A stretch of 63,552 nucleotides of DNA, filler included, from Chlamydiia bacterium (GCA_903848235.1; 8 parts of 8 records of this genome joined end to end with filler, not necessarily neighbours in it), one strand, 5' to 3'. Shown: positions 5,508 through 49,204, numbered from the whole stretch's first letter. A program made the numbers and translations. The notes: generated from the letters alone by a model not told the origin.

Positions 5508-5508
5508 G

Positions 5509-21831: not shown

Positions 21832-21931
21832 NNNNNNNNNNNNNNNNNNNNNNNNNNNNNNNNNNNNNNNNNNNNTTAATTAATTAANNNNNNNNNNNNN
21901 NNNNNNNNNNNNNNNNNNNNNNNNNNNNNNN

Positions 21932-27064: not shown

Positions 27065-28132
27065 TTACTTCGGACCAGCATACTTCCGCTGCTTTCTCCC
27101 TCTTTGATGTTGTGCGGCCTTTTTCTCTGCTTTTGTTCGAGGATCCACGCCCTCAATCCACTTATAAATTGACAGATAAGAGCAGTTTTTCCCTCTCCCC
27201 ACCAATAACTCGTGAACGCATTCAGCAACCTTGGTTCGAGAAAGGTTTCTGTCCTTCCTCCACTCCTCTGTAGCAAGAGATACTGAAAGATTCATTATAT
27301 TGAGCCCCTCTACCGCATAATCGCCCCATGATTTGATATTGGGCAGATCGGCAATCAAGTTCTCAACCAAACGCTTTAAACAGGCGTGCATGCTATGCAT
27401 GTTCTCTGTTCGAAAAACATGGGAGGAGGGACGTTCGCCGATGAGTTTCCAAGGTTGGAATCGCTCACACAAATGCTCAATGTACGCTAAGGCGATAACG
27501 GGATGCTCTCCAATTGGATAGGATCTAAACTTGAGAAAATCTCGTGCGTCAAGAGCACCCATGAATTCATCCCACTCCGAACCCATCCTGCTCTTATCTT
27601 TATCTCTAGATAATAACCATCTTCGCGCATCCTCAGCCCATTGATCCTCCCCTAGCAGCTCATCTTGTAGTGTTATTGGTTGATCGTCATCCTTCTTGCT
27701 TTCCGATGAGAATACGTGTGAATCTCGATTCATTTCTTTTCGGAGTCGATCTAAAACAGGAGGAATATCACCTTCAAGACCATCAACATATTTATTGTAC
27801 TTCCGAGCCAATGGCCACAACCTCCTCAAAGAAGGTACTTTCAAGAGCATAGGTCTCGTTCTTTCAAATGCCCTATTAAAAGCAGAATATGGGTCACCAC
27901 ACGTAAGAAGAGCTTGTAGCTCATTACGTAAAGCCTCCTCCTCTCTTCCACAGCCCGTGTCGTTATTTATCAAATTTAGGATGGGTTTACATCGCTTTCT
28001 CAAGCCCTCTACATCTATTTCTAGGCTATCTTTTTGGGCATCTATCCATTTTAGAATCGAATTAACTTTCTCCCGAATCTTCCTCTTGTCTATTCCAAAA
28101 CGGTCATTTTTGCTCGTCGTTTTTTTCATCAA
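27065..28132 (-). CDS. hypothetical protein
   Basis: 355-aa ORF overlapping the integrase 3' end. Confidence 0.6.
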   Translation of the reverse strand: MMKKTTSKNDRFGIDKRKIREKVNSILKWIDAQKDSLEIDVEGLRKRCKPILNLINNDTGCGREEEALRNELQALLTCGDPYSAFNRAFERTRPMLLKVPSLRRLWPLARKYNKYVDGLEGDIPPVLDRLRKEMNRDSHVFSSESKKDDDQPITLQDELLGEDQWAEDARRWLLSRDKDKSRMGSEWDEFMGALDARDFLKFRSYPIGEHPVIALAYIEHLCERFQPWKLIGERPSSHVFRTENMHSMHACLKRLVENLIADLPNIKSWGDYAVEGLNIMNLSVSLATEEWRKDRNLSRTKVAECVHELLVGRGKNCSYLSIYKWIEGVDPRTKAEKKAAQHQRGRKQRKYAGPK

Positions 28133-29189
28133 GAAGCCTCTCTGTGGTATTTTGGACTATTTCTTTCAAATATGGATCGGAAAAATGGTTATAGCGTTTG
28201 CTCATGATCGGTGACTTGTGTCCTAGAAGCGACATAAGGGCACTTGTATTAGCTCCTTGCATAGCAAAATGTGAAGCAGCCGTATGACGTAACGTATGAA
28301 ATGTTGCCCCTGTAATCCCCGCCTTTTTGAGTGAGGATTCGAAAGATGATCGTAGTCTCAGGTACCCGCGACTATTGCCAATACGTCTTATGGGAGGAAA
28401 CACGAGATTATCAAGAGATTTGTTCTTCAACTCCTGTAATAACACGATTATTTCATTCGAAATTGGAACGATACGGTCAGTCCCGTTCTTCGTGTGGTGA
28501 AGATTGATAAATCCAGCTTGAAGGTCTACCTGCTCCCACTCTAGCTCGATGATTTCGCTGTACCTCATTCCTAAAGCCACAGCCATAAGCACAACGGAAT
28601 ACAACTGTTTGTTCTTTGACCTCCTGCATACGTCAAGAAGGCGCTTCACTTCATCCACGGAAAGAAAGCGAGTCTTTCCAGAGGATTCTTTAAGCTTTCC
28701 AACGCGAGACATCGGAGAAACCTCGAGCAGACACCATTCACGAACGCATAGAGTCAATACTTTTGATAATGCAGCCAGGTATCTATTCACCGTGGCTCCT
28801 GACCTTGCTTTGCCCCGATAGGTCGTTTCAATAGACAGTTGATCTCGAAGCTCGGAGATAATAGCTGGCGTAATTTGATGGAGTTGTAGCTGCCCTATCT
28901 GCTTGCACCACCAATCCAAAAGCTGTCGTTGTTTCTGTACTCGATGAGGGTACTGCTTCAAATACACAGAGAGGTATCTGTCGGCGACGTCACTCAATGT
29001 ATGTTTCTTCGCTTCTCCAGAAATGACTGTCTTTCCTCGCCGCAGTTCAGACTCTGTCGACTGAATCCACTGCTTGGCCTCATCTCGTGTTGAAAATTTT
29101 TCAGAAATATAAGGGAAGCCCTTCAGACGAACCTCTGCGTAATAAACGGTTGAGTAGTCCTTATTTCTTCTTTTTCGAATCGAACCCAT
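28104..29189 (-). CDS. tyrosine recombinase/integrase
   Basis: GMRYSE, TKNG, FHTLRHTAAS, LLGHKS, RYNH; RBS AAGGAG upstream. Confidence 0.95.
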   Translation of the reverse strand: MGSIRKRRNKDYSTVYYAEVRLKGFPYISEKFSTRDEAKQWIQSTESELRRGKTVISGEAKKHTLSDVADRYLSVYLKQYPHRVQKQRQLLDWWCKQIGQLQLHQITPAIISELRDQLSIETTYRGKARSGATVNRYLAALSKVLTLCVREWCLLEVSPMSRVGKLKESSGKTRFLSVDEVKRLLDVCRRSKNKQLYSVVLMAVALGMRYSEIIELEWEQVDLQAGFINLHHTKNGTDRIVPISNEIIVLLQELKNKSLDNLVFPPIRRIGNSRGYLRLRSSFESSLKKAGITGATFHTLRHTAASHFAMQGANTSALMSLLGHKSPIMSKRYNHFSDPYLKEIVQNTTERLLDEKNDEQK

Positions 29190-29323: not shown

Positions 29324-29666
29324 TTTTCCGTAATTTTTCCGTAGTGAAAGCGGCTTTCCAAACAGGATAAAAAACAAAACTGCCTCGAGAATGCTACCTG
29401 AACACGTTTGGTCAATTGGTCAATCGTTGTTTTTTTGGTGGTCAAATTCAGAAAGTTAGAAAAACACGTTGTAAATGCATTTTGGAGCCGTTTGGTCAAC
29501 ATGGCCAACGTGGTCAACGCAAAAACATAAGGGGCGGAATGCGCAAACGGCAAGAATTGAATCAATAGCAATTTTTTGAGCAATATGACAGCAAAACAGC
29601 CTTGGACTAAGCCGACAAAGGCTGAGAACAGAAATGATGGGGGCATTACGGAAAAATTACGGAAAA
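29324..29666. repeat. arm-type and short direct repeats upstream of the integrase
   Basis: TTTTCCGTA x2 (29324-29343) inverted to ATTACGGAAAA x2 (29645-29666); six TGG(T/C)CAA copies between 29409 and 29517. Confidence 0.7.
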
Positions 29667-29782
29667 CGAGGCGTGGTAGGCTACCACACGATGGCCACAA
29701 AACGGCCTGAAGAGCAAGTATGGGGGCAATTGGACGCCTTTAGAACTTTTGATTGGAATGCGCTCTTCATTCCACTCCTCAT

Positions 29783-30277
29783 CTAATCATTTATTCTTTT
29801 CACATCCAAAAGCATGGGAGTATAGTGATGGGCGGTGTGAGCATGAAACAGACACCCCTCGACAGAGACTTGTTGATGCTCATAATCCCGACAGAACTTC
29901 TCCATCTCTTTATCAAGTACAAGTACAATTTCACTCGAATTGGGCCACTTAAGAATGTCTTTAAAATCAAGCCCAAGCTCTTTAACGGGGGTGCCCAAGG
30001 CGAGAAGGAATGAGGGTTTGTCTAATTCTAAAATCCAACAATAGTCCACTCTATCCCCATTTTCAACAGATGAATATTCTGGAGGTCCAGGAAATTGTTT
30101 CAAGCTCAATTTACCCGTAATCGTAACCAATGGTTCTGAAAAGGCCTCGAGATCCAAAGTAGATTCTGTAGATCTTGAATGGATCCATATATTCAAAAAG
30201 TAATATGCTATGGGCAACCCAACGAATAAGCCAAAACAGCAAAGTAGCAACGTAATCTTGTAATTTTTTCGTCTCAT
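29783..30277 (-). CDS. DUF4431-like membrane-anchored protein
   Basis: N-terminal TM; VTITGKL..FPGPPEYSSVENGD..WIL.LDKP; G.LFHAHTAHHYTPMLLDV. Confidence 0.7.
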   Translation of the reverse strand: MRRKNYKITLLLCCFGLFVGLPIAYYFLNIWIHSRSTESTLDLEAFSEPLVTITGKLSLKQFPGPPEYSSVENGDRVDYCWILELDKPSFLLALGTPVKELGLDFKDILKWPNSSEIVLVLDKEMEKFCRDYEHQQVSVEGCLFHAHTAHHYTPMLLDVKRIND

Positions 30278-30969
30278 CTTTGTGCTATCAACTCAAATGG
30301 ATTGGATCTAAATTCAGGACGAAGGTAGATAGTGCCTTTTTTCAGGTGGACGACGATAGCGTGCAATCTACCTTCAATAGCCATTTTGATGGCATCTTGT
30401 TTAGCGAACCAGGACGAACCATTTCCGCTGTTGATCAAGTATTCCGTTATTACATTATGTTTTTTATGAACACCAGAAATAATCCATTTCTCAATAAAAT
30501 CTTCTTCCCCAACCTCCCATTTTTCTACTTTTTCAATTGCTCTCCAAAACATTTCAAATTCTTTATCACTGAGCGATTTGATAGTACGTTCAGGATCGAA
30601 CTTTGTAATCTTTACAATTTCGTCAATATAGCTTGGATTGGTACTATCGTATCTTTTCATAGCAGCCCGTAACGTCAAAGGGGTGTAGACAGACCCTCTC
30701 AACATAACAACGAGGGCTTCATGCCCAGTTTCATAGTCTGGAAATATTGCATATTCATTCGCGCCGTCGCCAGCAGTGCCTATTGATCGTCGATCTTTTC
30801 CTCTGGTATATGGACTCGCCAATAGATTGCCAGGGTTATTACATCTCCAAGACCTTTTCCCTCCACTTCGAATGGTCATGTTCCCTTTTTCATCAAAATA
30901 TTGAACAGTAAACATACTCTTCGGGTCACCAACATTAGGTGGGCCTGCTTGAGCTCTTATGAAAACCAT
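30274..30969 (-). CDS. lysozyme-like (NNPGN) domain plus DUF3892-like C-terminus
   Basis: GGKRSWRCNNPGNL, YAIFPDYETGHEAL, Y..LTL; C-terminal KQDAIKMAIEG..YLR. Confidence 0.6.
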   Translation of the reverse strand: MVFIRAQAGPPNVGDPKSMFTVQYFDEKGNMTIRSGGKRSWRCNNPGNLLASPYTRGKDRRSIGTAGDGANEYAIFPDYETGHEALVVMLRGSVYTPLTLRAAMKRYDSTNPSYIDEIVKITKFDPERTIKSLSDKEFEMFWRAIEKVEKWEVGEEDFIEKWIISGVHKKHNVITEYLINSGNGSSWFAKQDAIKMAIEGRLHAIVVHLKKGTIYLRPEFRSNPFELIAQR

Positions 30970-31046
30970 GTCGCACCTCTCATAGACAGTTTCTGATCAA
31001 AAATAAGGAACACTCCAGAGACCCTTTAGGGCCAACCTTCATACGA

Positions 31047-31901
31047 TTATTTAAAATCTGTTGCTTGACGAAGCCATTCGTTAATTTTCTCGATTACGTG
31101 CGCGATTTTATCAGGTAATTGTTCTAGTAATGACAAAGAATGATGATAGCGCTCCCAATACATCTGAAGCCTTGAAAGTTGGGAGACATCAAATCGAATG
31201 GGTAAATAAAGCCTCGTCTTCCTATGCCAAAAAACAGCCCGTATCGCGCGTTCCGATTCAACACCATCCAATACATGTTCTGCACGAACCAAGGTCAGAA
31301 GGTCATGGTAGTCCTTCATGCGACTATTTTCAGCCCCTCGATGGATCACTGTTTCCAGCTTTTCAGCAAAAACAAATTCTAGTGGATAGCATTGCAGTGA
31401 AAGGGACGATTCGAAAAGAGGTCCTTTCGAGTTGGCTGAGAGAATAATGTTTTTCTCTTGGACAGCAACAACGTCTCCGAATCCCAGGTCGATAAAGAGA
31501 GGAAACTGGGCTTTTCCAAAATGCACCCCAATTCGTACCTGAGCACCCACATACTTCATGTGAAAGTGATCAAGTGGCACAACCCTTGGATTCACAAAAG
31601 TGAAGCCATCCACAACCTGAATTGAGACGATTTCGTCAAAGACCTTTTGAAGCGCATGAATCTCGTTACCCAAACGCTGAACAGCAAAGTCAAGATCCTG
31701 TGTTTCTCTACCCAGTCTTAGGTGTTTTGCCAAAAGGGTTCCCCCCTTCAAAACAAAGTGAGAGCCATATGGAGAGCTGCATAGTCGGACAAGAAATCGC
31801 TCAGCAATGACATTGTGCCAGACTTCAGCTGGCGTCAAGCTTCGCTCTTTCGCTATGTTGTGCAACCGTTTTTTGAAGGACTGTTCAAACGACGAATTCA
31901 T
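31047..31901 (-). CDS. abiEii: AbiEii nucleotidyltransferase toxin (type IV TA)
   Basis: ERFLVRL, FVLKGG, RETQDLDF, AEKLE, NSRMKDYHDL. Confidence 0.9.
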   Translation of the reverse strand: MNSSFEQSFKKRLHNIAKERSLTPAEVWHNVIAERFLVRLCSSPYGSHFVLKGGTLLAKHLRLGRETQDLDFAVQRLGNEIHALQKVFDEIVSIQVVDGFTFVNPRVVPLDHFHMKYVGAQVRIGVHFGKAQFPLFIDLGFGDVVAVQEKNIILSANSKGPLFESSLSLQCYPLEFVFAEKLETVIHRGAENSRMKDYHDLLTLVRAEHVLDGVESERAIRAVFWHRKTRLYLPIRFDVSQLSRLQMYWERYHHSLSLLEQLPDKIAHVIEKINEWLRQATDFK

Positions 31902-32494
31902 GTAGTCAGTGCCATCACATAATGGGCGATAGAAACTTTCAAGAGTGTCGCATATTTTGAAAGTTTTTGTATATCAGGTTTTGAGCCTCCAGACATTCTC
32001 AGGTACATTTGCAGAGCCTTAATGGCCACTTCATGACTCAAATACCGAAAGGCATCAATTACGGTTCTTTCGCGATCGAAAATCTTCACTGAATATTTTC
32101 CAATTTTCACTTTTGTCTGCCCAAGAGTCATATTTCTCATTCGGACAATGCGTGTGTGCGGCCGTTTCGGGCTTCGGTCTCTGTTTGGAACAGCTATCCA
32201 GTATTCTCTCATGATCTGGTCGGTAAGATTGTAATAGCATAGCGCTGAGATAAGGCAAATGACTCCATGAGGGATACTCGAAGCAGTCAATACAAGTTCT
32301 TCAAAGTCCAGCCCGACGTCAGTGGGAATATCGAGAACACGATAAAGTCCTCGACTAACTCTTTCAATCCTGCCTTTTTGGCAATAGTACGCAAGCATAC
32401 GTGAAGGAATCCCGAGAGTGCGTGCTTCGCATGCCTTGAAAATCGGCATTTGAAGAAGGACCGCAAGAGCGGTTGCATACTTTGAGTTTTTCAT
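31898..32494 (-). CDS. abiEi: AbiEi antitoxin (type IV TA)
   Basis: IERVSRGLY, GVICLISAL.YY.LTDQI, ERTVIDAFRY. Confidence 0.88.
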   Translation of the reverse strand: MKNSKYATALAVLLQMPIFKACEARTLGIPSRMLAYYCQKGRIERVSRGLYRVLDIPTDVGLDFEELVLTASSIPHGVICLISALCYYNLTDQIMREYWIAVPNRDRSPKRPHTRIVRMRNMTLGQTKVKIGKYSVKIFDRERTVIDAFRYLSHEVAIKALQMYLRMSGGSKPDIQKLSKYATLLKVSIAHYVMALTT

Positions 32495-32659
32495 ATTTGA
32501 CATGTAACACATGCACTCAAAAAGAGTCAATGAGTGCGCATATTTCACATATAGATACCAGCAATTTCATGGTTTCTGCACGAGTTTGTCTCGCCCCAGG
32601 TAATTGTCATCGACCGGTCATGATAATTGTCGCGCCATACGACGATATGTTTTTCTTCG

Positions 32660-33688
32660 CTAAAGGGCTCTTATCACAATATCTTTCAGGTATTGATTCC
32701 GAAAATCTGTTTTTTGTCCGATTTTTGCTCTTCCGTCAGATACAAATCGAGCAGCAAGCGGTTTGTTGTATTTCTCAGCAAGACCTTTGATTAAAGATAG
32801 AATTTCTCCTACTCGCCCCCTATCCTCATCAAGACCAATCGGATACACATCAATCCCAAGTCCAGAATGCAAGGACAGAAATAGATTTCTTTCTATTGAA
32901 AAATTCCCCCTTTCATACTCTTCGGCTAAGGAAAAGTCTTCAACGCAGGGGAGCATGAGTCCGCACAGACCGATTGGCTTAGGATTGTGATTCCTCAAAA
33001 ACTTAGTAATTTTGAGGTAGAAGTCTGTTACTGTTGTGGGCGAGAACCCTCGAGGGGACAACCGATTTACAAAATTAATAAAACTACTTTTTCCAGAAAA
33101 CAGGGGCGCTACCGATGAATCTATTCCTAAAAATCCGGAGTCAGGCCCAAACATTTCATGTATCTCTAACCAGCAACGTTGCATATTGCCTAACCACTGG
33201 TCAAGCGAAGTGCAGCCTTCTGACAAGTCTGTGCTTTGAAGGCCTATTGAGAAACCCTCTTGAACATAGGCCGCAGAAGGAAAAAATGGGCTAGAAGGCC
33301 TATTGTTGAAAACATATGTAAAATTGAAGGTTTTCGAAGCATTTCGAGAAATGATTTCAAACAATAAATCCACAAAGTATTCGTCGATTTTATCTTGATG
33401 ACACAGCTCTACATTGAACGAAACATTTTCAGAACGAACAAATTCATCGAATTGCAACTCAACTTGAGCCTTGTTCAATGTACCAACGCTCAAAAGCATA
33501 CCAGGCGTTTCAAGTAATCCAATCTCTCTGATTGACGTAGGGGCGCAAAGCCTTCTTGTTTGTATTTCATAACCAGCTCGCTGGAGATTTAATTCAACTT
33601 CATCTAACTTTTGTCCGATTTCTGAATAAGGCTTTTTGGAAAAAAAACAAACAGACCTGACGATTTTCGTCATAATATTGACCTCCAT
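32660..33688 (-). CDS. DUF711 family protein
   Basis: GIDSSVAP, GLCGLMLPCVEDFSLA, SGLGIDVYPI, KPLAARF. Confidence 0.75.
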   Translation of the reverse strand: MEVNIMTKIVRSVCFFSKKPYSEIGQKLDEVELNLQRAGYEIQTRRLCAPTSIREIGLLETPGMLLSVGTLNKAQVELQFDEFVRSENVSFNVELCHQDKIDEYFVDLLFEIISRNASKTFNFTYVFNNRPSSPFFPSAAYVQEGFSIGLQSTDLSEGCTSLDQWLGNMQRCWLEIHEMFGPDSGFLGIDSSVAPLFSGKSSFINFVNRLSPRGFSPTTVTDFYLKITKFLRNHNPKPIGLCGLMLPCVEDFSLAEEYERGNFSIERNLFLSLHSGLGIDVYPIGLDEDRGRVGEILSLIKGLAEKYNKPLAARFVSDGRAKIGQKTDFRNQYLKDIVIRAL

Positions 33689-33737
33689 CTAAATCTTTGA
33701 TACTGGCCGAAAATCCATGATCAAGATTAATAAACAA

Positions 33738-34604
33738 CTATTTTTTACCGATCGCCATAATATGTGAACTCATTCCTAGAACGGATTCATCCTGTTCAGA
33801 CGCATTAATAATTCTAACGAAATCTTGAAAAACTGCTTCGTCCACAATGTTCTCATCGGTCACGGGACTCCCCAATCCCTCCACACCATGGAGGGAAACC
33901 TCGTTGAATCCTGTTTGCTCCAGCTCCTTTTTTAGTTCCGCTGGGTAATGGCTATAAAATACAGCGTCTCGATATTCGAATTGACCGTTCGTTAATGAAC
34001 CAAAGATAGCTGTCTCTAAGTCGGGTGTCATTTTCCCTTTCTTAAGATAAGAATTGATAGGAGCATATCGCGACACTGCTACTGCAAACAAGGTTCCACC
34101 ACTCTTCAAAACTCTGTAAGCTTCTGATAAGGCAACCTCACGATCGGCATGGTTAAGATGGTAGAGAGGACCAAAAAATAAGACAACATCAGCACTCTGA
34201 TCACTCATTTCTATTTTCCGAGCGTCTCCCAAGAGGTACCCCAATGGCGCTTTCCCAGTTACGGTTTTCCCTATTTTTTTAGCCTCCTCTATGTGGTAAG
34301 CAACCGGATCAATCAGATACACGGCATATCCCCGTTTGGCCAAATCGAAGGTGTATATGCCAGTGCCTCCACCAACATCCAAAATGGTGGCAGGAGGTTG
34401 CGGTAAAAATTGTTCGAGCAATTTTTCAGTCCTGAGCTTTTCCAGGCGTCCAGTACCTTTTTTCAGTCGCTCTCTTTCTATGCCACTTTCATAAAATTTT
34501 TGAACGCCCTCAGAAAGAGCGGTCTCTTTTGCTTGAAGAAACGAACTCGTTACTATGTTCATAGAAAAAACCAATATTAAAAAGGCCAATACACGATTAC
34601 CCAT
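33738..34604 (-). CDS. class I SAM-dependent methyltransferase
   Basis: ILDVGGGTG, GDAR, DVVLFFGPLYHL, EAYRVLKSGG; signal-like N-terminus. Confidence 0.9.
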   Translation of the reverse strand: MGNRVLAFLILVFSMNIVTSSFLQAKETALSEGVQKFYESGIERERLKKGTGRLEKLRTEKLLEQFLPQPPATILDVGGGTGIYTFDLAKRGYAVYLIDPVAYHIEEAKKIGKTVTGKAPLGYLLGDARKIEMSDQSADVVLFFGPLYHLNHADREVALSEAYRVLKSGGTLFAVAVSRYAPINSYLKKGKMTPDLETAIFGSLTNGQFEYRDAVFYSHYPAELKKELEQTGFNEVSLHGVEGLGSPVTDENIVDEAVFQDFVRIINASEQDESVLGMSSHIMAIGKK

Positions 34605-34676
34605 GATTCACTCATTTAATTATAAATTAACACCTAATTAAGTTTGTCTTTTGCAAAGAAGCGATTTTATCACAAA

Positions 34677-35933
34677 TTAGATTTTTTGTGCACAAGTTCG
34701 CAACTCCCGCAACAGATCCTTGGCATCCCTCACCCAAACTCGAGTGCCTCTAAAATAAAAAGTCGCCCCGTGAACCTTTCCAAAAAATGCTTGCTTAAGC
34801 TCCTTGGGTAGTTTAATCCGATTTATACACTTGGAAGCCGACTCCCATTTATATATCAGGTTTGCCCTCCTTTCACCCTCACGTTTGTCTTCAAAGAGAT
34901 CCTTCACAAATCTAAACACCCCAGATCCTTCTCCGCCTGCTTCCTCATGAAAAGCCTGAATGAAGAATTTTTCAGCCATTTGATTTTCAAACATTGCCTG
35001 CACCCACAGCTCATTCCCATCCAGAATAAGCTCAAAGGTTGTCACAGGCTCCTTTGGGCATGGAGGGACATTTTCTTTATGTCCACAAATGTGAGTACTA
35101 ATCGCGTTGATAAGCACCCTCAGACCATTCTGAAAAAGGTCTTTTGTAAAAATAACAGGTGTTGACTGGGCCTCAACACGGTCTCTGCCAGCAGCAATTT
35201 CCTTCCAAGCAAACTTATAGCAGATGGTTTGAAAATGGAAGCCATGATTCTTTCCATGCTGCGATGCTTCAACATGCTCAAAATACAGCTCAGGGGTACT
35301 CCAGCACCAAATCGCTCCTTCAAAGTACCACCACACAATGGCAGGGTCATAGAATCTGTTTAAATAGACATCCTCTATAGCAGTGAAGGCGTCGACAACA
35401 GATGGCGCAAAGGAAAACTCCCCTATATAGACTTCTTCTTCAAGCTCACTTATGGAGCCTCTGGAGACGTATTTTTTGCAGGAGGCTAGCTTTGCATACT
35501 TTGTGCACAAATCTCTCTGCCCCGCCCCTAACAAGAGCTGGAGCAGCTGTTTTATCTCATCATAGAGAACCTGATACAGAGGGGGGCCATACCATTGCTT
35601 CTGACTCACTACCAGGCGATCAAGAAGGGCTATTTGCTGGAGGACCCTTTCATTATCAATGGAGCTAATCACCCTTTTGATCTCATGGAACACTTCCTTT
35701 GTCTCTGCCATAGCATGGACTTCAGCATCTTGGATTTGCTGATTCAGATGATCACGTCGTTCCCTCCACTCCACTCTTAAGGGCTCTATAGTTGCCTCCT
35801 CAGCGATGAATGGCAACACCTCCTGGCAAAAAAATCTGACAAGGCCCTCTCTGCTGGCCATCTCTTGAGATTGTTTTTCAAAACGCTCAAGACATTTCAA
35901 TAGAAGGAGTGACGATGAAGTCTGAGAGCTCAT
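34677..35933 (-). CDS. hypothetical protein
   Basis: 418-aa ORF divergent from the primase-helicase operon. Confidence 0.65.
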   Translation of the reverse strand: MSSQTSSSLLLLKCLERFEKQSQEMASREGLVRFFCQEVLPFIAEEATIEPLRVEWRERRDHLNQQIQDAEVHAMAETKEVFHEIKRVISSIDNERVLQQIALLDRLVVSQKQWYGPPLYQVLYDEIKQLLQLLLGAGQRDLCTKYAKLASCKKYVSRGSISELEEEVYIGEFSFAPSVVDAFTAIEDVYLNRFYDPAIVWWYFEGAIWCWSTPELYFEHVEASQHGKNHGFHFQTICYKFAWKEIAAGRDRVEAQSTPVIFTKDLFQNGLRVLINAISTHICGHKENVPPCPKEPVTTFELILDGNELWVQAMFENQMAEKFFIQAFHEEAGGEGSGVFRFVKDLFEDKREGERRANLIYKWESASKCINRIKLPKELKQAFFGKVHGATFYFRGTRVWVRDAKDLLRELRTCAQKI

Positions 35934-36109
35934 AATGACTACTTATTTTTTCATTCATAATCGCATTTCAGTCTCATAAACACTGATCATTTTGCGATTG
36001 TTGCAAATTCGTCCTGCACTTTATCGCAATAGTTTCTTGTTTTCCATGGTTTCAATCTCAGTTGCGTCCAAAAAAATTTCCAATAAAGGAAATCTTTTAA
36101 AATAGGGGT

Positions 36110-36292
36110 ATGAAAAAGAAAAGATCAAGACATTGCCCCCTCACACCAGCACCACAAATGGATGACACAGTCATTCCTCAAAGGGAACTGCTAGGGCGTT
36201 TTTTTGATCTTCTACTTCGAATAGACAACCGCAATAACCCAGAACTGTATGGGGAACATATAGGCTCTGACAATAAGGAATTAACACCATGA
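36110..36292 (+). CDS. small hypothetical protein
   Basis: 60 aa; ATGA overlap with the primase-helicase start. Confidence 0.5.
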   Translation: MKKKRSRHCPLTPAPQMDDTVIPQRELLGRFFDLLLRIDNRNNPELYGEHIGSDNKELTP

Positions 36293-38007
36293 TAATACAA
36301 GATTTTTTACAATGCCTTGAATCTAAAACTGGCCATGTGGCCAAAACGTCAGGTGATGGATATTCAACATGCTGCCCATCCCATGATGACTCAACCCCAA
36401 GCCTTTCCATATCAGAAGGAACTGATGGAAAAGTATTAGTCAACTGTTTTGCTGGTTGTTCTCCAGAGAACATCTGCCAATCACTTGGGATTAATCTCTC
36501 AGACCTCTTTCCAGAAAAAATTCAGCCTGTGGATATACCTGCGAGGCAAAAGACCTTACACCTATATCAAGATGAAAATGGGAACATCTTGTTTCACAAA
36601 GTTCGTATTGAACCTGGCTTCGATGGCAAGGAGAAGAGCTTTTATTGTGAACGCACCGACGAAAATGGAGAAGTTGTTAAAAGCTTGAGAGGATGCAGAA
36701 AGGTCCTCTATAGGCTCCCAGAGCTACAAAAAGCCATAGCAGCTAACAAAGTCATATTTTTGGTTGAGGGTGAGAAAGACGTCGACAAACTGATCAGCTA
36801 TGGATTGGCAGCCACGACCTCTCCTGAATCACTCAAATGGAGCAAAGAGTTTTCGCTCTCTCTACAACAGGCTGACATCGTCATTCTTTACGACATGGAC
36901 AAAACTGGATATGAGCGAAGGGATTTGCTCTGTAAAGAGCTCTACAGGACCGTGAAAAGGCTTCGTGTTGTTGCCCTACCTGGACTGGAATATCAAGAGT
37001 CCCATGGGAAGGACATTAGCGACTGGCTACAGGAGGGACATACGACAGACCAGTTGATGGACCTCGTTTCTCACACTCACGATTTTGCAAAAATTCCAAA
37101 AGGAAAAGGTATTCGAGCTGTTTCTTTAGAAGAATTTTTGAGTATCGAGCTCCCAAGGCAGGAGATGCTCCTCCATCCTTTCTTGCCAACTCAAGGGTTA
37201 TGTCTTCTCTATGCAAAGCGCGGCGTGGGGAAAACACATGTGGCTCTTGGAATTGGGTATGCAGTGGCAACAGGAGGCACATTCCTGAAATGGTCAGCTC
37301 CTGTGGCTAAAAAGGTGCTGTACATTGACGGCGAGATGCCAGCCGCTGCTATGCAGGAGAGACTGAAGAGAATCTCTAACACAGAAAATCTGAAACCTCC
37401 AGACCCAAGCTTCTTTCGATTGATTACCCCAGATCTTCAAGACACCCCAATGCCTGATCTATCAACAAAGGAAGGACGCGATACCCTAGAAGAATTTGTT
37501 CAAGAAAGTGATCTTGTCATCATCGACAACATCTCCACTCTCTTTCGCAGTGGTGTCGAAAATGAAGCTGAAAGCTGGCAACCTGTGCAAGATTGGGCCC
37601 TTGATTTGAGGAGAAGAGGGAAATCAGTTCTTTTCATTCACCATGCAGCAAAGGCAGGACAGCAAAGAGGGACAAGCAAGAGGGAAGACATACTCGACAC
37701 AGTGATCACGTTGAAGCAACCGCAGGGGTATTGCGCAGACCAGGGAGCCTGCTTTGATGTTACATTTGAAAAAACACGACACTTCTCTGGTGAGGATGCA
37801 GCACCATTCCAGGTACGCCTAAAGGCCCAAGACGATGGGGTCTGGTTGTGGATCATCGACAAAATCGCCCCTGATACTGACCTTCTCGAGGTAGCGAATG
37901 CCTTACGAGAGGGGCTGACGATTGAAGAGACAGCACAGAAAACAGGACTGACAAAGTCCCAGGTAGAGACAAGAAAGAAAAAAGCTAAACAACAAAACCT
38001 TTTATGA
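36289..38007 (+). CDS. primase-helicase (zinc finger, TOPRIM, RepA/AAA_25-type)
   Basis: CCPSHDD..CFAGC; LVEGEKDVD; AKRGVGKT; VLYIDGEM; IIDNIS; HHAAK..QRGTS. Confidence 0.9.
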   Translation: MIIQDFLQCLESKTGHVAKTSGDGYSTCCPSHDDSTPSLSISEGTDGKVLVNCFAGCSPENICQSLGINLSDLFPEKIQPVDIPARQKTLHLYQDENGNILFHKVRIEPGFDGKEKSFYCERTDENGEVVKSLRGCRKVLYRLPELQKAIAANKVIFLVEGEKDVDKLISYGLAATTSPESLKWSKEFSLSLQQADIVILYDMDKTGYERRDLLCKELYRTVKRLRVVALPGLEYQESHGKDISDWLQEGHTTDQLMDLVSHTHDFAKIPKGKGIRAVSLEEFLSIELPRQEMLLHPFLPTQGLCLLYAKRGVGKTHVALGIGYAVATGGTFLKWSAPVAKKVLYIDGEMPAAAMQERLKRISNTENLKPPDPSFFRLITPDLQDTPMPDLSTKEGRDTLEEFVQESDLVIIDNISTLFRSGVENEAESWQPVQDWALDLRRRGKSVLFIHHAAKAGQQRGTSKREDILDTVITLKQPQGYCADQGACFDVTFEKTRHFSGEDAAPFQVRLKAQDDGVWLWIIDKIAPDTDLLEVANALREGLTIEETAQKTGLTKSQVETRKKKAKQQNLL

Positions 38008-38081
38008 ATGACACACAAATTTCCGAATTTCCGATCTCTATAGGGAAATCAGAAATCGGAAATGAAAAAGGAGGCACACCT

Positions 38082-38558
38082 ATGACAACGCAGAAACAAC
38101 TGGAGGCAAATCGCCTCAATGCAATGCAATCAACAGGCCCAAAAACCAATGAAGGCAAGGCCCTAGTGGCCCAAAATGCCCTGAAGCATGGGTTCTTCAG
38201 CAAACAAATCCTAATCGATGGTGAGTCGAAGAATGAGTTTGATGTTTTGAAAATGGAATTTTATAGCCAATTCCAGCCCCAAGGACTTTTGGAAAATCTC
38301 TTCCTTGAAAGAGCCCTTACAGCGGCATGGAGATTGTCAAGAGTGACACAAATGGAGTCCATGTTGATCAGCTATGCTGCAAACAATTCATTTGAAAACA
38401 ATGGCATCATCGAAGTTTTAAAAGGAAGGGAGGGAAGTGAGCTTGCCCTACTCTCCCGCTATGAAATCACCCTGGAGAAAATTCTGTTCAGATCCCTTGG
38501 GGAGTTAAGGGCTCTACAATATGCGCGAAAGATGAACGAAACTGTGATCGACTTCTGA
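38082..38558 (+). CDS. hypothetical protein with STGPKT motif
   Basis: AGGAGG RBS; TQKQLEANRLNAMQSTGPKTNEGK..NALKHG. Confidence 0.75.
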   Translation: MTTQKQLEANRLNAMQSTGPKTNEGKALVAQNALKHGFFSKQILIDGESKNEFDVLKMEFYSQFQPQGLLENLFLERALTAAWRLSRVTQMESMLISYAANNSFENNGIIEVLKGREGSELALLSRYEITLEKILFRSLGELRALQYARKMNETVIDF

Positions 38559-38657
38559 CATTGGCTTTGATTCGTAAAAAACATGAATAGAAGCTATTTA
38601 AGGAGTGCAATGTTTTATAATCCTTTGCTATGATCAATATCCTTGGAGGACCAGACC

Positions 38658-38852
38658 ATGAAAAAAATCGACGATTACCTGCAGATCAAAGAGGCTTCTG
38701 AATTGTTGGGAGTCACTGCCACAACATTGAGAAATTGGGAAAGAAAGGGAAAACTCCTCTCCCACCGCCACCCTATCAACAAATATCGACTCTATAAAAG
38801 AGAAGACCTTGAGGCTCTTTTACAGAAGATTGACACACCACAAGGACAATAG
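38658..38852 (+). CDS. MerR-type HTH (excisionase/directionality factor-like)
   Basis: LQIKEASELLGVTATTLRNWERKGKL..HPINKYRLY; directly upstream of the recombinase. Confidence 0.8.
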   Translation: MKKIDDYLQIKEASELLGVTATTLRNWERKGKLLSHRHPINKYRLYKREDLEALLQKIDTPQGQ

Positions 38853-38886
38853 CCCAGTCCCAACATCCCTACCCAGTTAAAACACC

Positions 38887-40557
38887 ATGAAAGCAATTTT
38901 ATTGGCTCGAGTCTCCAGCAAAGAGCAAGAAGAAGGTCAATCTATCCCCGCCCAAGAGAGGCGATTGAGAGAGTACGCAGAGAGGAAAGGGCTCATTGTC
39001 GATGAGATCTTCAAAATCACTGAATCTTCCACAAAGGATACCAGGCGTGAATTTGAAAGAATTTTGGAACGCATTCACAAATCAAGAGAGACCATCGCCC
39101 TTGTCGCTGACACCATCGATCGTGTACAGCGCAGCTTCAAAGAGTCTGTCGTTCTCGACAACCTACGCAAAGAGGGCAAGGTAGAGATTCATTTCATGCG
39201 TGAGGGACTTATCCTCAACCTCAAGTCCAATAGCTCGGATATCTTGCGATGGGACATGGGAGTGATGTTTGCAAGGAGCTACGTCCTTCAGTTGAGTGAC
39301 AATGTCAAACGCAGCAAGGAAGAGTCTCTCAAGAAGGGAATTTGTATTGGCAAGGCCCCTCTTGGATACCTGAGGGTCACTGATGAAAAGGGAAACAAGA
39401 CAATCATCCCTGATCCATTAACGAAGTCACTCATTCAAGAGATGTTCTTTCAATACTCTAACGGCAATCATTCCCTTCAAAGTCTCACCATCTTCATGAA
39501 AGACCAAGGGTTAAGAACGAGCAATGGCAACCCCATCGTCAAATCACAAATCGAGTCCATGCTGAAAAACACTTTTTACTCTGGAGTCATGAACACGAAA
39601 CAGGGGCAGTTCCCCCATCACTATGAGACACTGGTATCGCAAGAACGATTTCAACAGGTACAAAACATTCTCTCAGGGTACCACAAGAAACCATTTCAAT
39701 CTCTATCGCGACCCTTTGCTTTGCGTGGATTGATCACCTGCGCTAGATGTGGCTGTATAGTGTCTCCTGAGATCAAGAAGGGAAAATATGTCTATTACAG
39801 CTGCACCAACGCCAAGGGAACTTGCTCTAGGAACTATATCAGGGAAGAGGCGCTGCTGGCTCAGCTTACCCCATGTTTCGAGAGCATCACCCTATCAGAA
39901 GAGGCCATAGCCACCATCACTGAATACCTCAAGGAAGTGCATCAGTCTGAGCAAAAGTTTTTCCAGGAAGAACAGGCTCTGTTACAGAAGGAGCTCGACA
40001 GGGTGAAAAACCGTATGAGCAAAATGTATGACGATAAGCTTGATGGGCTGATTGATGAGGAGCTGTATCAGCAGAAATTCAATGAGTGCAAGACAAGGCA
40101 GCAAGAGGTGGTGTCAAAGATGCAGCGACACGTCAAAGCTGATGAGCACTTCTACATCACTGCCAATACAGTCCTAAGGCTAGCAAGCAGAGCAAAGGAT
40201 CTTTTCGAAAGTTCTGAAGTAGAGGAAAAGAGGCAACTTCTCAATTTTGTGTTTCAGAACTTGGTTTTAGATGGTGAAAAACTGGTCCACACATTGCGTG
40301 AGCCATTTTCAATGATCATGAACATGAAAGCATGTCCAAATGGATGGGGGCAGTTGGACTCGAACCAACGGAGTCGTGAGACGAGGGATTTACAGTCCCT
40401 TGCAATTGCCGCTATGCGATACCCCCAAAAACGAGAACCTCCTGAGTTCATTTCACTTCTGTTTCCTGCTGAAACTACAACTCAGGGCACTAAAATGCTG
40501 ACAGTAGGACTTGAACCCACAACCGTCCGATTACAAATCGGGCGCTCTACCAGTTGA
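38887..40557 (+). CDS. large serine recombinase (integrated-state allele, last 65 aa antisense to tRNAs)
   Basis: ARVSSKEQ catalytic Ser, DRVQR, APLGY, zinc ribbon CARCG..YYSC..C, coiled coil. Confidence 0.92.
   Translation: MKAILLARVSSKEQEEGQSIPAQERRLREYAERKGLIVDEIFKITESSTKDTRREFERILERIHKSRETIALVADTIDRVQRSFKESVVLDNLRKEGKVEIHFMREGLILNLKSNSSDILRWDMGVMFARSYVLQLSDNVKRSKEESLKKGICIGKAPLGYLRVTDEKGNKTIIPDPLTKSLIQEMFFQYSNGNHSLQSLTIFMKDQGLRTSNGNPIVKSQIESMLKNTFYSGVMNTKQGQFPHHYETLVSQERFQQVQNILSGYHKKPFQSLSRPFALRGLITCARCGCIVSPEIKKGKYVYYSCTNAKGTCSRNYIREEALLAQLTPCFESITLSEEAIATITEYLKEVHQSEQKFFQEEQALLQKELDRVKNRMSKMYDDKLDGLIDEELYQQKFNECKTRQQEVVSKMQRHVKADEHFYITANTVLRLASRAKDLFESSEVEEKRQLLNFVFQNLVLDGEKLVHTLREPFSMIMNMKACPNGWGQLDSNQRSRETRDLQSLAIAAMRYPQKREPPEFISLLFPAETTTQGTKMLTVGLEPTTVRLQIGRSTS
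40345..40426 (-). tRNA. tRNA-Tyr(GTA)
   Basis: GGGGGTATCGCATAGCGGCAATTGCAAGGGACTGTAAATCCCTCGTCTCACGACTCCGTTGGTTCGAGTCCAACTGCCCCCA folds as a cloverleaf. Confidence 0.96.
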
Positions 40558-40568
40558 GCTATGTCAGC
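40496..40568 (-). tRNA. tRNA-Thr(TGT)
   Basis: GCTGACATAGCTCAACTGGTAGAGCGCCCGATTTGTAATCGGACGGTTGTGGGTTCAAGTCCTACTGTCAGCA. Confidence 0.96.
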
Positions 40569-40642
40569 ATCAATCGGCGCAGCATACGTTACCAATGATG
40601 TACGATTTCTCTCAAGAGTGGAGAAACAAAAAATACACTTTC

Positions 40643-40972
40643 CTAAGAGGTCGGTGGCAAAACTTCCTTCGGCGCCCCTTCAATCCCAATCAGCTCTTCG
40701 AGTGTGCCATAGCTCTTGGGAACCTCGCCGGTCGTCACTTCTACAGCGGTCTTCTCCGGCTCCTTAGGAGCTCCTGCAGAAGCTGTCAGAACCTTAAACA
40801 CCTTCCGAGCCAAATTCACAGAAGGATTCTGAGCGGTATTCGCACTTGGCGCCATCACTCTGATTCCACCAAGACGCGGCTTATGGGTCTCCAGCTCTTT
40901 TAACCCACAGCACTTCTTATATTTCTTCCCTGAACCACAAGGACATGGATCATTACGGTTTGCTTTCGTCAT
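40643..40972 (-). CDS. SEC-C motif protein
   Basis: [17 protein letters not shown]. Confidence 0.85.
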
Positions 40973-41067
40973 ATGAGGATTCTTCTTTGTGCTTTACAAT
41001 GAGAAAGCATAGATCGTACCATCTTTGTAGATTTTTTCGGGATGCTCTTTGAAGTGAACCTTTTTTC

Positions 41068-41844
41068 ATGGCTATGATTCCCCTCCCCACTCCCCCATGG
41101 ACCGGCCTCGGACGCAGGCTAGAAAGCGCCACGAGGAAAGCTCTCTATGACTTTCAGCTGCTCGACGGTGTCTCTCGTCTGGGGATCGCATTAAGCGGTG
41201 GAAAAGACAGCCTCACCATGCTCTTCCTTCTCCATGCAATTCAGGGAAGAGGGTTCCCGCCAATTGAAATAGTCTGCTTCCATGCCGGAGGAGATACTTC
41301 ATGCGGCGCGAGCATCGGAAACCCATTTTTAATCGATCTGTGCGGACAGCTAAACGTCAAATTGGTCACTCGTCCAATGCCCCCATTTAAGGGAGACCTC
41401 GAATGCTACTCATGCTCTCGGCGACGAAGAAAATTGCTCTTTGACATGGCAAAAGAAAATGGCTGTCAGACGATCGCCTTCGGCCACCACCGCGATGACA
41501 ATGCCCAAACACTCCTCATGAACCTTCTTCACAAAGGAGAGTGTGCGGGCCTCCTCCCAAAACTAACACTCTATAAATACGGCGTTACCATCATCCGCCC
41601 TCTTATCTACCTAGCAGAGGATGATATCTCTACATTCGCTAAGCAGTATGGTTTTCAGCGCATCACCTGCCGCTGCCCAGCAGGACAGCACTCACTTCGA
41701 AAAAAAACAGACCTCTTGCTCACCACCCTTACATCCATTTATCCCAACGCGCGAAGTAACTTAGCCCACGCGTCGTTAGTCTATGGAAGCCAAAAGGCTC
41801 AAAAAGATGAGCTGGCTGATCTTGATCATTCGACAAGTTTGTAA
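41068..41844 (+). CDS. ttcA: tRNA 2-thiocytidine biosynthesis protein
   Basis: PP-loop SGGKDS, CYSCSRRRR, GHHRDD, IIRPL, C.CP. Confidence 0.88.
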   Translation: MAMIPLPTPPWTGLGRRLESATRKALYDFQLLDGVSRLGIALSGGKDSLTMLFLLHAIQGRGFPPIEIVCFHAGGDTSCGASIGNPFLIDLCGQLNVKLVTRPMPPFKGDLECYSCSRRRRKLLFDMAKENGCQTIAFGHHRDDNAQTLLMNLLHKGECAGLLPKLTLYKYGVTIIRPLIYLAEDDISTFAKQYGFQRITCRCPAGQHSLRKKTDLLLTTLTSIYPNARSNLAHASLVYGSQKAQKDELADLDHSTSL

Positions 41845-49104: not shown

Positions 49105-49204
49105 NNNNNNNNNNNNNNNNNNNNNNNNNNNNNNNNNNNNNNNNNNNNTTAATTAATTAANNNNNNNNNNNNNNNNNNNNNNNNNNNNNNNNNNNNNNNN
49201 NNNN

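Follow-up and report, generated by a model that had tools for sequence, protein, structure and literature searches.

A probable tRNA-Tyr island of a Chlamydiia bacterium with its attachment site inside the gene for its own serine recombinase

Gene content and boundaries of the island

The window (the whole 63,552-nucleotide stretch of DNA analysed, filler included) comes from a Chlamydiia bacterium (GCA_903848235.1) and consists of metagenome-assembled contigs strung together via N linkers. The island and its flanking features all lie within a single contig, 21932-49104 (Table 1). The adjacent AbiEi and AbiEii genes, which overlap by 4 nt (31898-31901), make up an AbiE abortive-infection (type IV toxin-antitoxin) pair. 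In other loci, the position of the primase-helicase is held by DUF927 or Zn_ribbon_DnaG proteins. The small helix-turn-helix (HTH) protein upstream of the large serine recombinase (LSR) had been called MerR-type in a first-pass annotation, and Pfam agreed (MerR/HTH_17). This protein and the 184-aa protein, each found in 17 of 80 loci, are putative candidates for a separate directionality factor acting in excision.

Table 1. Features of the island and of the DNA around it, in window coordinates
Feature	Position	Strand	Basis
Tyrosine integrase, outside the island; part of the DNA adjoining tRNA-Tyr before insertion	28104..29189	-	Pfam 2.2e-31
attL core, A variant of the displaced tRNA-Tyr 3' end	29720..29735	+	matches the single core of the G001 empty site
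Island body, 10,608 bp between the cores	29736..40343	.	missing from G001 between homologous flanks
Left end of the island, putative P' arm of attP; LSR frame gives AFRTFDWNALFIPLLI and a stop	29736..29786	+	tail type in 22 further places, 19 loci
TTTAGAACT (family consensus TTCAGAACT), putative zinc-ribbon-domain motif of the P' half-site, T-loop mimic	29739..29747	+	
DUF4431 protein, 164 aa, stop overlapping the tail stop	29783..30277	-	DUF4431 E 9.6e-12
231-aa ORF, no family; sub-threshold DUF3892 match	30274..30969	-	Pfam, PADLOC
AbiEii toxin-type nucleotidyltransferase	31047..31901	-	Pfam 2.1e-33; PADLOC 1.9e-63
AbiEi antitoxin/regulator	31898..32548	-	Pfam 4e-11; PADLOC 2e-77
DUF711-like protein, 342 aa	32660..33688	-	Pfam
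Class I SAM methyltransferase, 288 aa	33738..34604	-	Pfam; PADLOC mad2-like 8.9e-19
418-aa ORF, no family match	34677..35933	-	Pfam, PADLOC
60-aa ORF ahead of the primase gene, no family match	36110..36292	+	Pfam
Primase-helicase-like protein (CHC2 zinc finger and AAA_25), 572 aa	36289..38007	+	Pfam
184-aa protein, no family	38004..38558	+	tblastn: upstream of LSR in 17/80 loci
MerR/HTH_17 small HTH protein, candidate excisionase or regulator	38643..38852	+	Pfam; upstream of LSR in 17/80 loci
LSR, integrated form, 556 aa; residues 1-491 island, 492-556 tRNA antisense	38887..40557	+	
Putative P arm of attP in LSR codons (..MKACPNG), GTCCAA inverted to core TTGGAC; approximate limits	40320..40343	+	
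tRNA-Tyr(gta), target gene, restored by the island	40341..40427	-	ARAGORN, called whole
attR core, live tRNA-Tyr end and LSR codons 487-491, G variant	40344..40359	+	sequence and ARAGORN
tRNA-Thr(tgt), antisense to the end of the 556-aa ORF	40495..40569	-	ARAGORN

We found only two matches to the 16-nt core ATGGGGGCARTTGGAC in the window, with 10,624 bp between their starts. The first-pass annotation had taken these copies as the bounds of a unit, and all of its coordinates were reproduced. The two differ at a single position (CAA/CAG, both Gln), with the G variant in the tRNA. As had been proposed, the mismatch is synonymous; ARAGORN calls the tRNA whole. The locus is built like a tDNA island, with a whole, restored tDNA at one end and a displaced fragment at the opposite end.

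We compared the window to G001, an island-free genome of the same genus. In G001 the left flank, the core and tRNA-Tyr are contiguous. On its contig C22, 15501-15593 aligns to window 29643-29735 and 15578-16180 aligns to window 40344-40998, and the two alignments overlap by the 16-nt core. That is, the breakpoints in the island-free relative are exactly those predicted. Contigs from three other runs (X3, X4 and X10) contain the left end of the island beginning exactly at 29720, and in X4 (3 differences in 1,863 nt) and X10 it is preceded by different sequence. The empty-site joints in X4 and X10 come from relatives and have short sides of 24-27 nt. Assembled contigs, in which rare circles are invisible, contained neither an attP junction nor an empty attB from the strain itself.

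The recombinase, its two forms and its relatives

The right core encodes LSR residues 487-491 (WGQLD), and the ORF then continues for 65 residues antisense through tRNA-Tyr and tRNA-Thr. At the left core, the LSR frame reads WGQLD-AFRTFDWNALFIPLLI and ends in a TAA at 29784-29786, which shares bases with the stop codon (29783-29785) of the 164-aa ORF converging on it. The rejoined product, computed from both ends, is 491+16 = 507 aa. Both products, the overlapping stops and the double role of the core as tRNA-Tyr 3' end and codons W487-D491 had been described before, and translation and ARAGORN gave the same results. The crossover is within the integrase ORF: the core is codons 487-491, G001 fixes the breakpoints, and the tails are at the islands' far ends. 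The earlier structural reading, an element in the 3' end of tRNA-Tyr that exchanges the last 16 residues of its integrase, is supported.

The LSR has the domains Resolvase (PF00239, 9e-13), Recombinase (PF07508, 2.8e-13) and Zn_ribbon_recom (PF13408, 3.1e-10). Its Pfam families are those of a serine recombinase only, and none is that of a tyrosine recombinase of the Mx8 IntP type. Residues R8, V9, S10, R79 and R82 were invariant in alignments of 67 and 78 rows, and C285 was nearly so. In the AlphaFold model, coiled-coil helices (338-385 and 391-416, at high pLDDT) are inserted in the zinc-ribbon domain. The fold matched the SPbeta, Bxb1, PhiC31 and LI integrases (E down to 1e-19), with 12-23% identity to the solved chains.

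Relatives of the LSR were surveyed in 81 sources, 66 of them informative and 15 uninformative. In 45 of the 66 informative loci, the 3' end of the LSR gene lay over a whole tDNA in antisense, for tmRNA in 13 and for tRNA in 32 (10 anticodon types). Of the remaining informative sources, 16 had a T-loop-antisense peptide, 2 were in the attP form and 3 were of other kinds. This recurrence speaks against a coincidental overlap in the window. The LSR of the island is a member of a large, previously undescribed group of attP-spanning serine integrases aimed at tRNA and tmRNA genes.

A tail of the FRTFDW type, with the same core before it, was found at the far end of homologous islands, and directly on the LSR in non-integrated forms. 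This is the outcome of a homologue comparison that the first-pass annotation had called for: non-integrated homologues terminate in an FRTFDW-like tail, which also marks the other end of integrated islands. A loose pattern for the tail matched 26 places on the LSR strand in homologous loci, 22 of them with core context, and each of these 22 lay either at the end of the LSR or somewhere upstream. On the opposite strand there were 4 matches, none with core context. One further tail brings the total to 23, drawn from the window and 19 loci of Chlamydiota and Patescibacteria/CPR. Every integrated member was without the native tail and had instead a tail of from a few residues up to 65. In the wider superfamily, attP-form tails keep x-R-T only. 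We also noted a viral contig with an LSR ending ..WDVFRT.. and no adjoining tRNA.

The exchanged tail as DNA and as peptide

Within the tail, the wobble positions of the codons TTC AGA ACT are frozen. Counted in related, non-independent sequences, AGA was present in 22 of 23 tails and ACT in 22 of 23. In the same LSR genes, AGA accounts for 21% of Arg codons and ACT for 28% of Thr codons. In the gene bodies, after exclusion of 5 of 18 LSR spans with in-frame stops, the major codon had a share of 0.25-0.62 at 13 conserved Arg columns and 0.33-0.46 at 3 conserved Thr columns; two conserved Ser columns were codon-frozen as well. The GAAC in the tail was 5 nt further out than the GAAC of the T-loop in 16 of 18 locus pairs, and also in the window, where it was placed by hand. 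Serine integrases recombine short attP and attB sites with a 2-bp crossover. Their zinc-ribbon-domain motif is at attP positions 16-24 and lies 5 bp nearer the centre in attB (PMC3783163). Since the frozen wobble codons copy the T-loop GAAC at this known offset between attP and attB, the tail appears to be primarily a P' half-site. The tail is most strongly conserved at the DNA level, and judging from the sequence an attP half-site explains it without any peptide role. By analogy with these integrases, we assign the zinc-ribbon domain to the GAAC motif.

In other loci, xGTCCA or ATCCA is conserved 7-12 nt before the W codon. The P arm had no clear inverted copy of the zinc-ribbon motif. The crossover probably lies within the core's first 9-10 nt, and the local dyad points to the GG of the W487 codon. 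This placement draws on one mismatch (possibly a later mutation) and the local dyad; the dyad of tmRNA-type sites is different.

Based on these results, we infer that window 29720-40359 is very probably a 10.6-kb element that was inserted in tRNA-Tyr by its own LSR, with attP inside the LSR gene. The exchange of tails would for the most part be a side effect of the geometry of the att sites. The terminal ~20 codons of the LSR gene would contain attP, with the codons for ..ACPNG as the P arm and those for GQLD-AFRTFDW as the P' arm. In attB, the acceptor 3' strand and T-arm of the tRNA gene would together be one half-site and the trailer the other. The zinc-ribbon domain would read the T-loop GAAC in attB and, in attP, its copy 5 bp further out (TTCAGAACT, Phe-Arg-Thr), as in other serine integrases. 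With attP inside the LSR gene, integration would necessarily cut off the native tail of the 507-aa form, and the ORF would then extend through the tRNA genes in antisense, to 556 aa in this case. The tail could be restored by excision, or by a second element landing upstream.

It is possible, but we consider it doubtful, that the tail swap is instead a built-in switch, in which the 507-aa FRTFDW form integrates or is stable and the 556-aa form is inactive, unstable or dependent on a factor. As a corollary, integration would stay locked until one of two proteins, the small HTH or the 184-aa protein, came into play. Beyond the putative half-site, the tail (FDWxxΦ) varies in the manner of a peptide. 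The Asp codon is GAT in 15 tails and GAC in 7; F, L, I and V replace one another, with codon position 2 always T; and at W+3, where the residue is hydrophobic, conservation is confined to codon position 2 (T in 21 of 23). The reading frame of the tail is kept open for at least 9 codons after the W (median 19), whereas the two other frames have medians of 12 and 3. In the AlphaFold model of an attP-form homologue (P0066), the tail was predicted to form two helices with pLDDT 85-87, a confidence resting on ~20 tail-bearing rows. In the model of the window form, residues 488-556 were largely unstructured, mostly at pLDDT <50 (means of 10-residue blocks, 28-53). The FDWxxΦ part thus looks to be selected as a peptide, so a functional difference between the 507-aa and 556-aa forms is possible. 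The loss of the tail in every integrated member and the recurrence of the HTH and 184-aa genes upstream of the LSR are also in line with a switch, and there is a precedent in the tyrosine integrase of Mx8, where integration alters the C-terminus and the specificity of Int (PMC6070905).

In contrast, DNA recognition accounts for the best-conserved positions of the tail, and x-R-T is all that the attP-form tails of the wider superfamily retain. The range of lengths among integrated tails argues against a specific role for them. The first-pass annotation had the MerR-type HTH as a partner of the swap; only 17 of 80 homologous loci have this HTH upstream of the LSR, so a general partnership is excluded, and the 184-aa protein is equally limited.

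A clade-wide form of the switch can be put forward only tentatively. LSRs of Chlamydiota, Patescibacteria/CPR and phages would use tRNA and tmRNA 3' ends as attB and their own last codons as attP, and the swap would serve as a self-encoded switch of directionality or stability. If so, there would be two covalently different forms of the enzyme, one with a structured FRTFDW tail that integrates, and a tail-less or scrambled one unable to reverse the reaction alone. The core codons (WGRLD, WRWRE, WLGWRD and others) would then be a record of target choice that could be rewritten for retargeting.

It is very improbable that the tyrosine integrase to the left moved the segment and that core and LSR ORF overlap by coincidence. 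That gene is 530 bp from the left core, and tRNA targets are typical of tyrosine integrases (PMC4383910). However, it lies outside the repeat-bounded unit, and a homologue is directly beside tRNA-Tyr in island-free G001. In addition, the att type of the tyrosine integrase extends as far as the anticodon loop (54-nt fragments of tRNA-Tyr in this genome), as opposed to the 16 nt duplicated here, and the overlap of LSR and tDNA is found in 45 of 66 informative loci. We give practically no weight to a chance repeat without mobility: the core is merely 16 nt and has one mismatch, but none of 100 dinucleotide shuffles had two matches, the G001 empty site falls exactly at the core-defined ends, contigs from other runs join the same left end to other DNA at 29720, and the conserved tail is at the predicted end in 19 other loci.

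Relation to known systems

Our preferred reading, an LSR element with attP in its own integrase gene, has its likeness in Mx8 IntP and the SSV1 integrase, where the attachment site is also inside the integrase coding sequence. Integration of SSV1 splits int in two. Both of these enzymes are tyrosine recombinases, whereas that of the island is an LSR, with other chemistry and another logic of site recognition, and exchanges only its last 16 codons, which would double as a recognition motif. For Mx8, integration makes a new int 3' end and an altered protein (PMC6070905). Islander provides for integrases that span attP, for which it cites Mx8 and SSV (PMC4383910).

The LSR is like those of phages (LI/A118, Bxb1, PhiC31, SPbeta) in its fold, in its Resolvase, Recombinase and zinc-ribbon domains with a coiled-coil insert, and, it appears, in a common motif that stands 5 bp further from the centre in attP compared to attB. 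The attP of these phage LSRs is beside the integrase gene, and their attB is in protein genes or intergenic DNA. In those parts of the phage sources that we used, attP is treated as a short site separate from the gene; in the island, by contrast, attP would be inside the gene and attB a tRNA or tmRNA 3' end.

In mycobacteriophages with integration-dependent immunity, attP is in the repressor gene, the integrase is a tyrosine integrase, and the tail that is removed is a degradation tag. There too, integration changes the C-terminus of a phage protein whose gene holds attP, but the altered protein is the repressor and not, as in the island, the integrase.

Tyrosine-integrase islands of the Islander class share with this one a whole tDNA, a displaced 3' fragment, a restored gene and an integrase next to the tDNA. 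Tyrosine integrases were, according to the Islander authors, the only ones then known to target tDNAs (PMC4383910). In contrast to the 54-nt tyrosine-type fragments of tRNA-Tyr, the island duplicates 16 nt at the very 3' end of the gene.

Island ends and the empty site

We found that all of the coordinates in the first-pass annotation were correct and that the arrangement it had observed is present (see table). The core pattern ATGGGGGCARTTGGAC had two matches in the window, the A variant at the left end of the island and the G variant at the right end, and none of 100 shuffled sequences had two. The enzyme's domains (Resolvase, Recombinase and Zn_ribbon_recom), invariant residues and fold place it among the large serine integrases; we refer to it as the LSR (large serine recombinase). 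WGQLD makes up residues 487-491 of the 556-aa form and is followed by 65 more residues. At the left core, the same frame reads WGQLD-AFRTFDWNALFIPLLI, and its stop overlaps the stop of the convergent DUF4431 ORF. All of these features lie within a single 27-kb contig.

Positions of features in the window
Feature	Position	Strand	Source or remark
Contig carrying the island	21932-49104
Left core (attL)	29720-29735		A variant
Right core (attR)	40344-40359		G variant
LSR ORF	38887-40557	+	556 aa
Stop of the tail frame at attL	29784-29786
tRNA-Tyr(gta)	40341-40427	-	ARAGORN
tRNA-Thr(tgt)	40495-40569	-	ARAGORN
Terminator-like hairpin and T run	40287-40301	-	40 nt downstream of tRNA-Tyr 3' end
Tyrosine integrase	28104-29189
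Three direct copies	196-292, 1746-1842, 3539-3609		76% alike, 1.5-1.8 kb apart
Direct repeats, later contig	58630-58929/60373-60672		95%
Direct repeats, later contig	59750-59908/60112-60269		80-90%
Linkers	5400-5532, 12217-12349, 17360-17492, 21824-21956, 49097-49229, 51893-52025, 56916-57048		between contigs

At least eight MAG contigs, strung together by N linkers, make up the window, and features are not readable across the joins. Its largest "repeat family" (D1) is the artificial linker, that is, N runs around ttaattaattaa. Each of the three direct copies resembles a long-arm tRNA reduced to its 3' half, which spans the anticodon loop through the acceptor end. None was called as a tRNA by ARAGORN; one possibility is that small elements have formed an array at a single tRNA gene. 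Elsewhere in the genome, contig C257 has another large serine recombinase, unrelated to the LSR, with 25% identity and an open frame of 564 aa.

We propose that the free element would make a 507-aa enzyme and that its attP would be the end of the LSR's own gene, with the 3' end of tRNA-Tyr and its trailer serving as attB. Exchange near the W487 codon would restore the tRNA, with the last bases and trailer coming from the island. Integration would move the last 16 codons 10.6 kb away, and the frame of the integrated gene would stay open across tRNA-Tyr and tRNA-Thr by chance. We consider this structural account (self-spanning attP, attB in tRNA-Tyr, and tail exchange) very probable. The structural part of the earlier interpretation was confirmed.

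The unit had been predicted to be mobile with breakpoints at the two cores, and an island-free genome of the same genus (G001) has exactly those ends. On its contig C22, 15501-15593 aligns to window 29643-29735 and 15578-16180 aligns to window 40344-40998, and the overlap of the two alignments is exactly the 16-nt core. That is, the flank, a single core (G variant), and tRNA-Tyr are contiguous in G001, and the 10,608 bp that separate the two cores in the window are missing. In contigs from other sequencing runs (X3, X4 and X10), the left end of the island also begins at 29720; the X4 contig has 3 differences in 1,863 nt. X4 and X10 have loose ends in which the left end of the island is joined to different sequence. 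They also have a diverged left flank joined to 40344, to which we give little weight as the sides are short (24-27 nt) and come from relatives. Judging from its 30 letters, the loose left-end sequence in X4 and X10 seems to resemble a second LSR at its 3' end (..SPKGKW in frame), and we tentatively take it for part of a tandem array rather than for attP. Neither the circle junction (LSR 3' end to 29736) nor the empty site of this particular strain was seen in the assembled contigs of four runs, a result that is uninformative because contigs are blind to rare forms.

The tyrosine integrase lies outside the repeat-bounded unit, is kept beside tRNA-Tyr in G001, and is part of older DNA at this tRNA-Tyr hotspot. 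Contig C22 of G001 also has an LSR homologue (77-1073) followed by a 53-nt piece of the tRNA-Tyr 3' end. These lie on the left side of the live tRNA-Tyr (15578-15661) at a distance of 14.5 kb, with the tyrosine-integrase DNA in between, indicating a tandem array in which the order of insertion is opposite to that in the window. Three other contigs of the window's own genome (C107, C100 and C85) each have a degenerate fragment of the tRNA-Tyr 3' end, 54-62 nt long and reaching the anticodon loop. Two of these fragments have homologous right flanks, and the gene beside one encodes an HPFxxGNGR-type (Fic-like) motif. tRNA-Tyr serves two unrelated types of integrase with different crossover places.

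The core mismatch bears on where the LSR crosses over. The base is A at attL but G both at attR and in the empty site. An attP origin of the A would place the crossover to the left of position 10 in the core, inside ATGGGGGCA. After rejoining, GTCCAA (40335-40340) would make a dyad with the TTGGAC that ends the core, and the centre of this dyad would be the GG in the codon for W487. Inspection of the P arm of attP by eye revealed no clear inverted TTCAGAACT, just this inner GTCCAA/TTGGAC dyad and weak outer matches. A scan for promoters and terminators (38400-41100) gave 3 sites of each kind, compared to 2.8 expected by chance. The terminator-like hairpin falls within LSR codons on the opposite strand, and the island may supply the terminator of tRNA-Tyr.

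The island carries an AbiEi/AbiEii pair, a SAM methyltransferase, a DUF711-like protein, DUF4431, a primase-helicase-like protein and two ORFs without a family. No capsid or conjugation genes were seen in the island using Pfam.

Homologues, their targets, and tails at the far ends

The best 120 homologues of the LSR were 50-100% identical across the part aligned by BLASTP, and the few with a named source were from Chlamydiota, Rhabdochlamydiaceae, Ca. Babeliales or Ca. Theseobacter. Most of them (79 of 120) end in a peptide that is antisense to the T-loop (e.g., WGRLDSNQR.. or WRWRESNSRP). Another 23 stop at or just after the core, and four (P0040, P0062, P0066 and P0121) end in a tail of the FRTFDW type. 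Among 150 representatives at 29-52% identity, 72 had tails antisense to a tRNA or tmRNA gene (tDNA) and about a dozen had x-R-T tails.

We compared 80 loci from species genomes and the window's own contig. The LSR 3' end lies antisense over a whole tmRNA gene in 13 sources and over a whole tRNA gene in 32 (Tyr, Asn, Gln, Ser, Leu, Glu, Trp, His and Arg; two sources counted under Thr are Tyr-Thr pairs like that in the window). In 16 others there was a T-loop-antisense peptide and a whole tDNA was not called (fragments, mostly in arrays). Two sources had the attP form, three had some other 3' end, and 15 were uninformative (3' end off the contig or a truncated match). The loci are labelled as Chlamydiota, Patescibacteria/CPR (Saccharibacteria, Parcubacteria, Peribacteria and Kazan), and a few others. 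The structural reading extends to a large, uncharacterised clade that crosses phyla.

Among GenBank phages there were two matches, both to gut-metagenome scaffolds of uncultured "Bacteriophage sp." (MT837677.1 and MT836653.1). Their superfamily LSRs read antisense into tRNA-Leu(cag) and tRNA-Glu(ttc), respectively. Both scaffolds are of integrated elements together with DNA of the host, not of free phages. IMG/VR had one distant locus on a viral contig; its LSR is 33% identical and ends ..WGALWDVFRTGIMS.., with no adjacent tRNA.

A search for att pairs by exact-seed repeats (k = 11) missed most pairs, including that of the window, and gave many chance matches. Pairs were found instead using the tail motif and an ungapped match to the core. 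A loose tail pattern, searched in all six frames of all loci, matched at 26 places on the strand of the LSR and at 4 on its complement. The core context (W..D-x-FRTFDW) was present in 22 of the 26 and in none of the 4, and each of the 22 was either upstream of the LSR or exactly at its end. With an additional tail (FRTVDW), there were 23 tails in 19 loci and the window. The tail directly continues the LSR ORF in two loci (L049 and L065). Two or three tails, or a tail attached to the remnant of an upstream LSR, occur in several loci, including L026, L051 and L060. Such loci are tandem arrays, and in them a tail is restored to the upstream enzyme. The FRT-type tail, earlier suggested as the terminus of homologues, is seen both in non-integrated forms and at the other ends of islands.

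In a tree of LSRs (quick search, SH-aLRT support only), the chlamydial enzymes formed a single clade (32 rows, 100% support) with Tyr, Leu, Met and tmRNA as targets. An 11-row clade (99% support) was almost all tmRNA, and the Patescibacterial/CPR clades were specific for Ser or Gln. Some near-identical LSR bodies lie beside different tRNA fragments, Met versus Tyr (L027 compared to L028 and L029, with the Met fragment at L027 and the Tyr fragment at L029; L026 compared to L035). The cores in these pairs differ in the middle alone, TGGGGGCGGTTGGAC versus TGGGGCAACTTGGAC. The core is itself coding, so the W-to-D residues differ according to the target.

The tail as DNA signal or peptide

The 23 tails have the consensus codons TTC AGA ACT TTT GAT TGG. 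AGA and ACT were each used in 22 of 23 tails, compared to 21% of Arg codons and 28% of Thr codons, respectively, in the LSR genes of those loci. A control with three motifs (EPF, SSE and FQN) was misleading, as SSE and FQN were codon-frozen in the 11-16 matching loci, and was superseded by the full set of conserved columns in the aligned codons of 13 LSR genes (median identity 48%; five dropped for in-frame stops). There, the share of the major codon was 0.25-0.62 at 13 conserved Arg columns and 0.33-0.46 at 3 conserved Thr columns. Synonymous sites are thus saturated in the gene body but frozen in Phe-Arg-Thr, which argues for a constraint at the level of DNA.

The frozen motif contains GAAC, the T-loop core on the LSR strand. 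In 16 of 18 locus pairs and in the window, the GAAC at attL is 5 nt further out from the shared core than the T-loop GAAC at attR; the remaining two pairs did not align. Counted from the GG of the W codon, TTCAGAACT is at about positions 17-25 and the T-loop of attB at about positions 12-20. For LI integrase, the zinc-ribbon motif is at positions 16-24 of the attP half-site and its copy in attB is 5 bp nearer the center, and removal or insertion of 5 bp was shown to convert a half-site between attP-like and attB-like identity (PMC3783163). The offset of GAAC obeys the same 5-bp rule. By this analogy, the conserved Phe-Arg-Thr is best read as a putative zinc-ribbon motif of the P' arm that mimics the T-loop, and an attP half-site is the main explanation for the conserved tail.

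What remains of the tail appears to behave like peptide. Its Asp codon varies (GAT in 15, GAC in 7). Leu, Ile and Val also occur in place of the second Phe, and the middle base of that codon is always T. The residue three beyond the W is hydrophobic and conserved at codon position 2 alone (T in 21 of 23). The frame stays open at least 9 codons past the W in all 23 tails (median 19); the medians in the other frames were 12 and 3. AlphaFold predicted helices at 487-495 and 502-513 (pLDDT 85-87) for the attP-form homologue P0066, and residues 488-556 of the window's 556-aa form were mostly below pLDDT 50 (means of 10-residue blocks, 28-53). The models agree with a peptide-like remainder; they rest on about 20 tail-bearing rows and are silent on function.

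The first-pass annotation had proposed that loss of the tail is a switch for directionality or stability. We find it more likely that the tail swap is a by-product: DNA recognition accounts for the most conserved positions, and x-R-T is all that the wider superfamily retains. That the lost tail acts as a real switch is, in our view, possible but rather unlikely. A MerR-type HTH protein is encoded upstream of the LSR in 17 of 80 loci, as is a 184-aa protein (17 of 80), with at least one of them in 28 loci. Either may be a directionality factor; neither is universal, and SLFN/AlbA_2-HATPase_c_4 or DUF927 genes are in their place in other loci.

Comparison with known integrases

Serine integrases are the main tools for insertion of large DNA. 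The natural landing sites of this group are the ends of tRNA and tmRNA genes, which are present in every cell, and the reading of the site is visible in plain sequence (T-loop motif in attB, with the attP copy 5 bp further out). Close relatives take different tDNAs (Tyr, Met, Leu or tmRNA) with few protein changes, so rules for retargeting are testable, and the Met/Tyr loci with near-identical LSRs are a natural pair for such a study. The group also provides a clean natural experiment on the C-terminal tail and directionality, since the DNA and peptide roles of the same codons can be separated by recoding. The arrangement accounts for many gene calls in MAGs of "recombinases" that are over-long or have odd ends, and should aid the mapping of islands in chlamydiae and Patescibacteria/CPR bacteria.

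According to the authors of the tDNA island database Islander, no serine integrase was known to target tDNAs (PMC4383910). tRNA is unmentioned in the main text of a survey of 6,207 LSRs (PMC10083194), and a 2026 provirus survey found that RNA genes are preferred by tyrosine integrases. We found no description of a serine-integrase clade devoted to tDNAs, although survey supplements (PMC12424338, PMC13626063 and PMC10083194) may list cases. Nor did we find an attP-spanning gene described for serine enzymes in the literature searched, which was mostly outside subscription journals. The genes for the integrases of Mx8 and SSV also span attP (PMC6070905, PMC4383910). Those are tyrosine integrases, whereas the enzyme here is of the serine type, and this group is a serine-recombinase counterpart of the Mx8 case.
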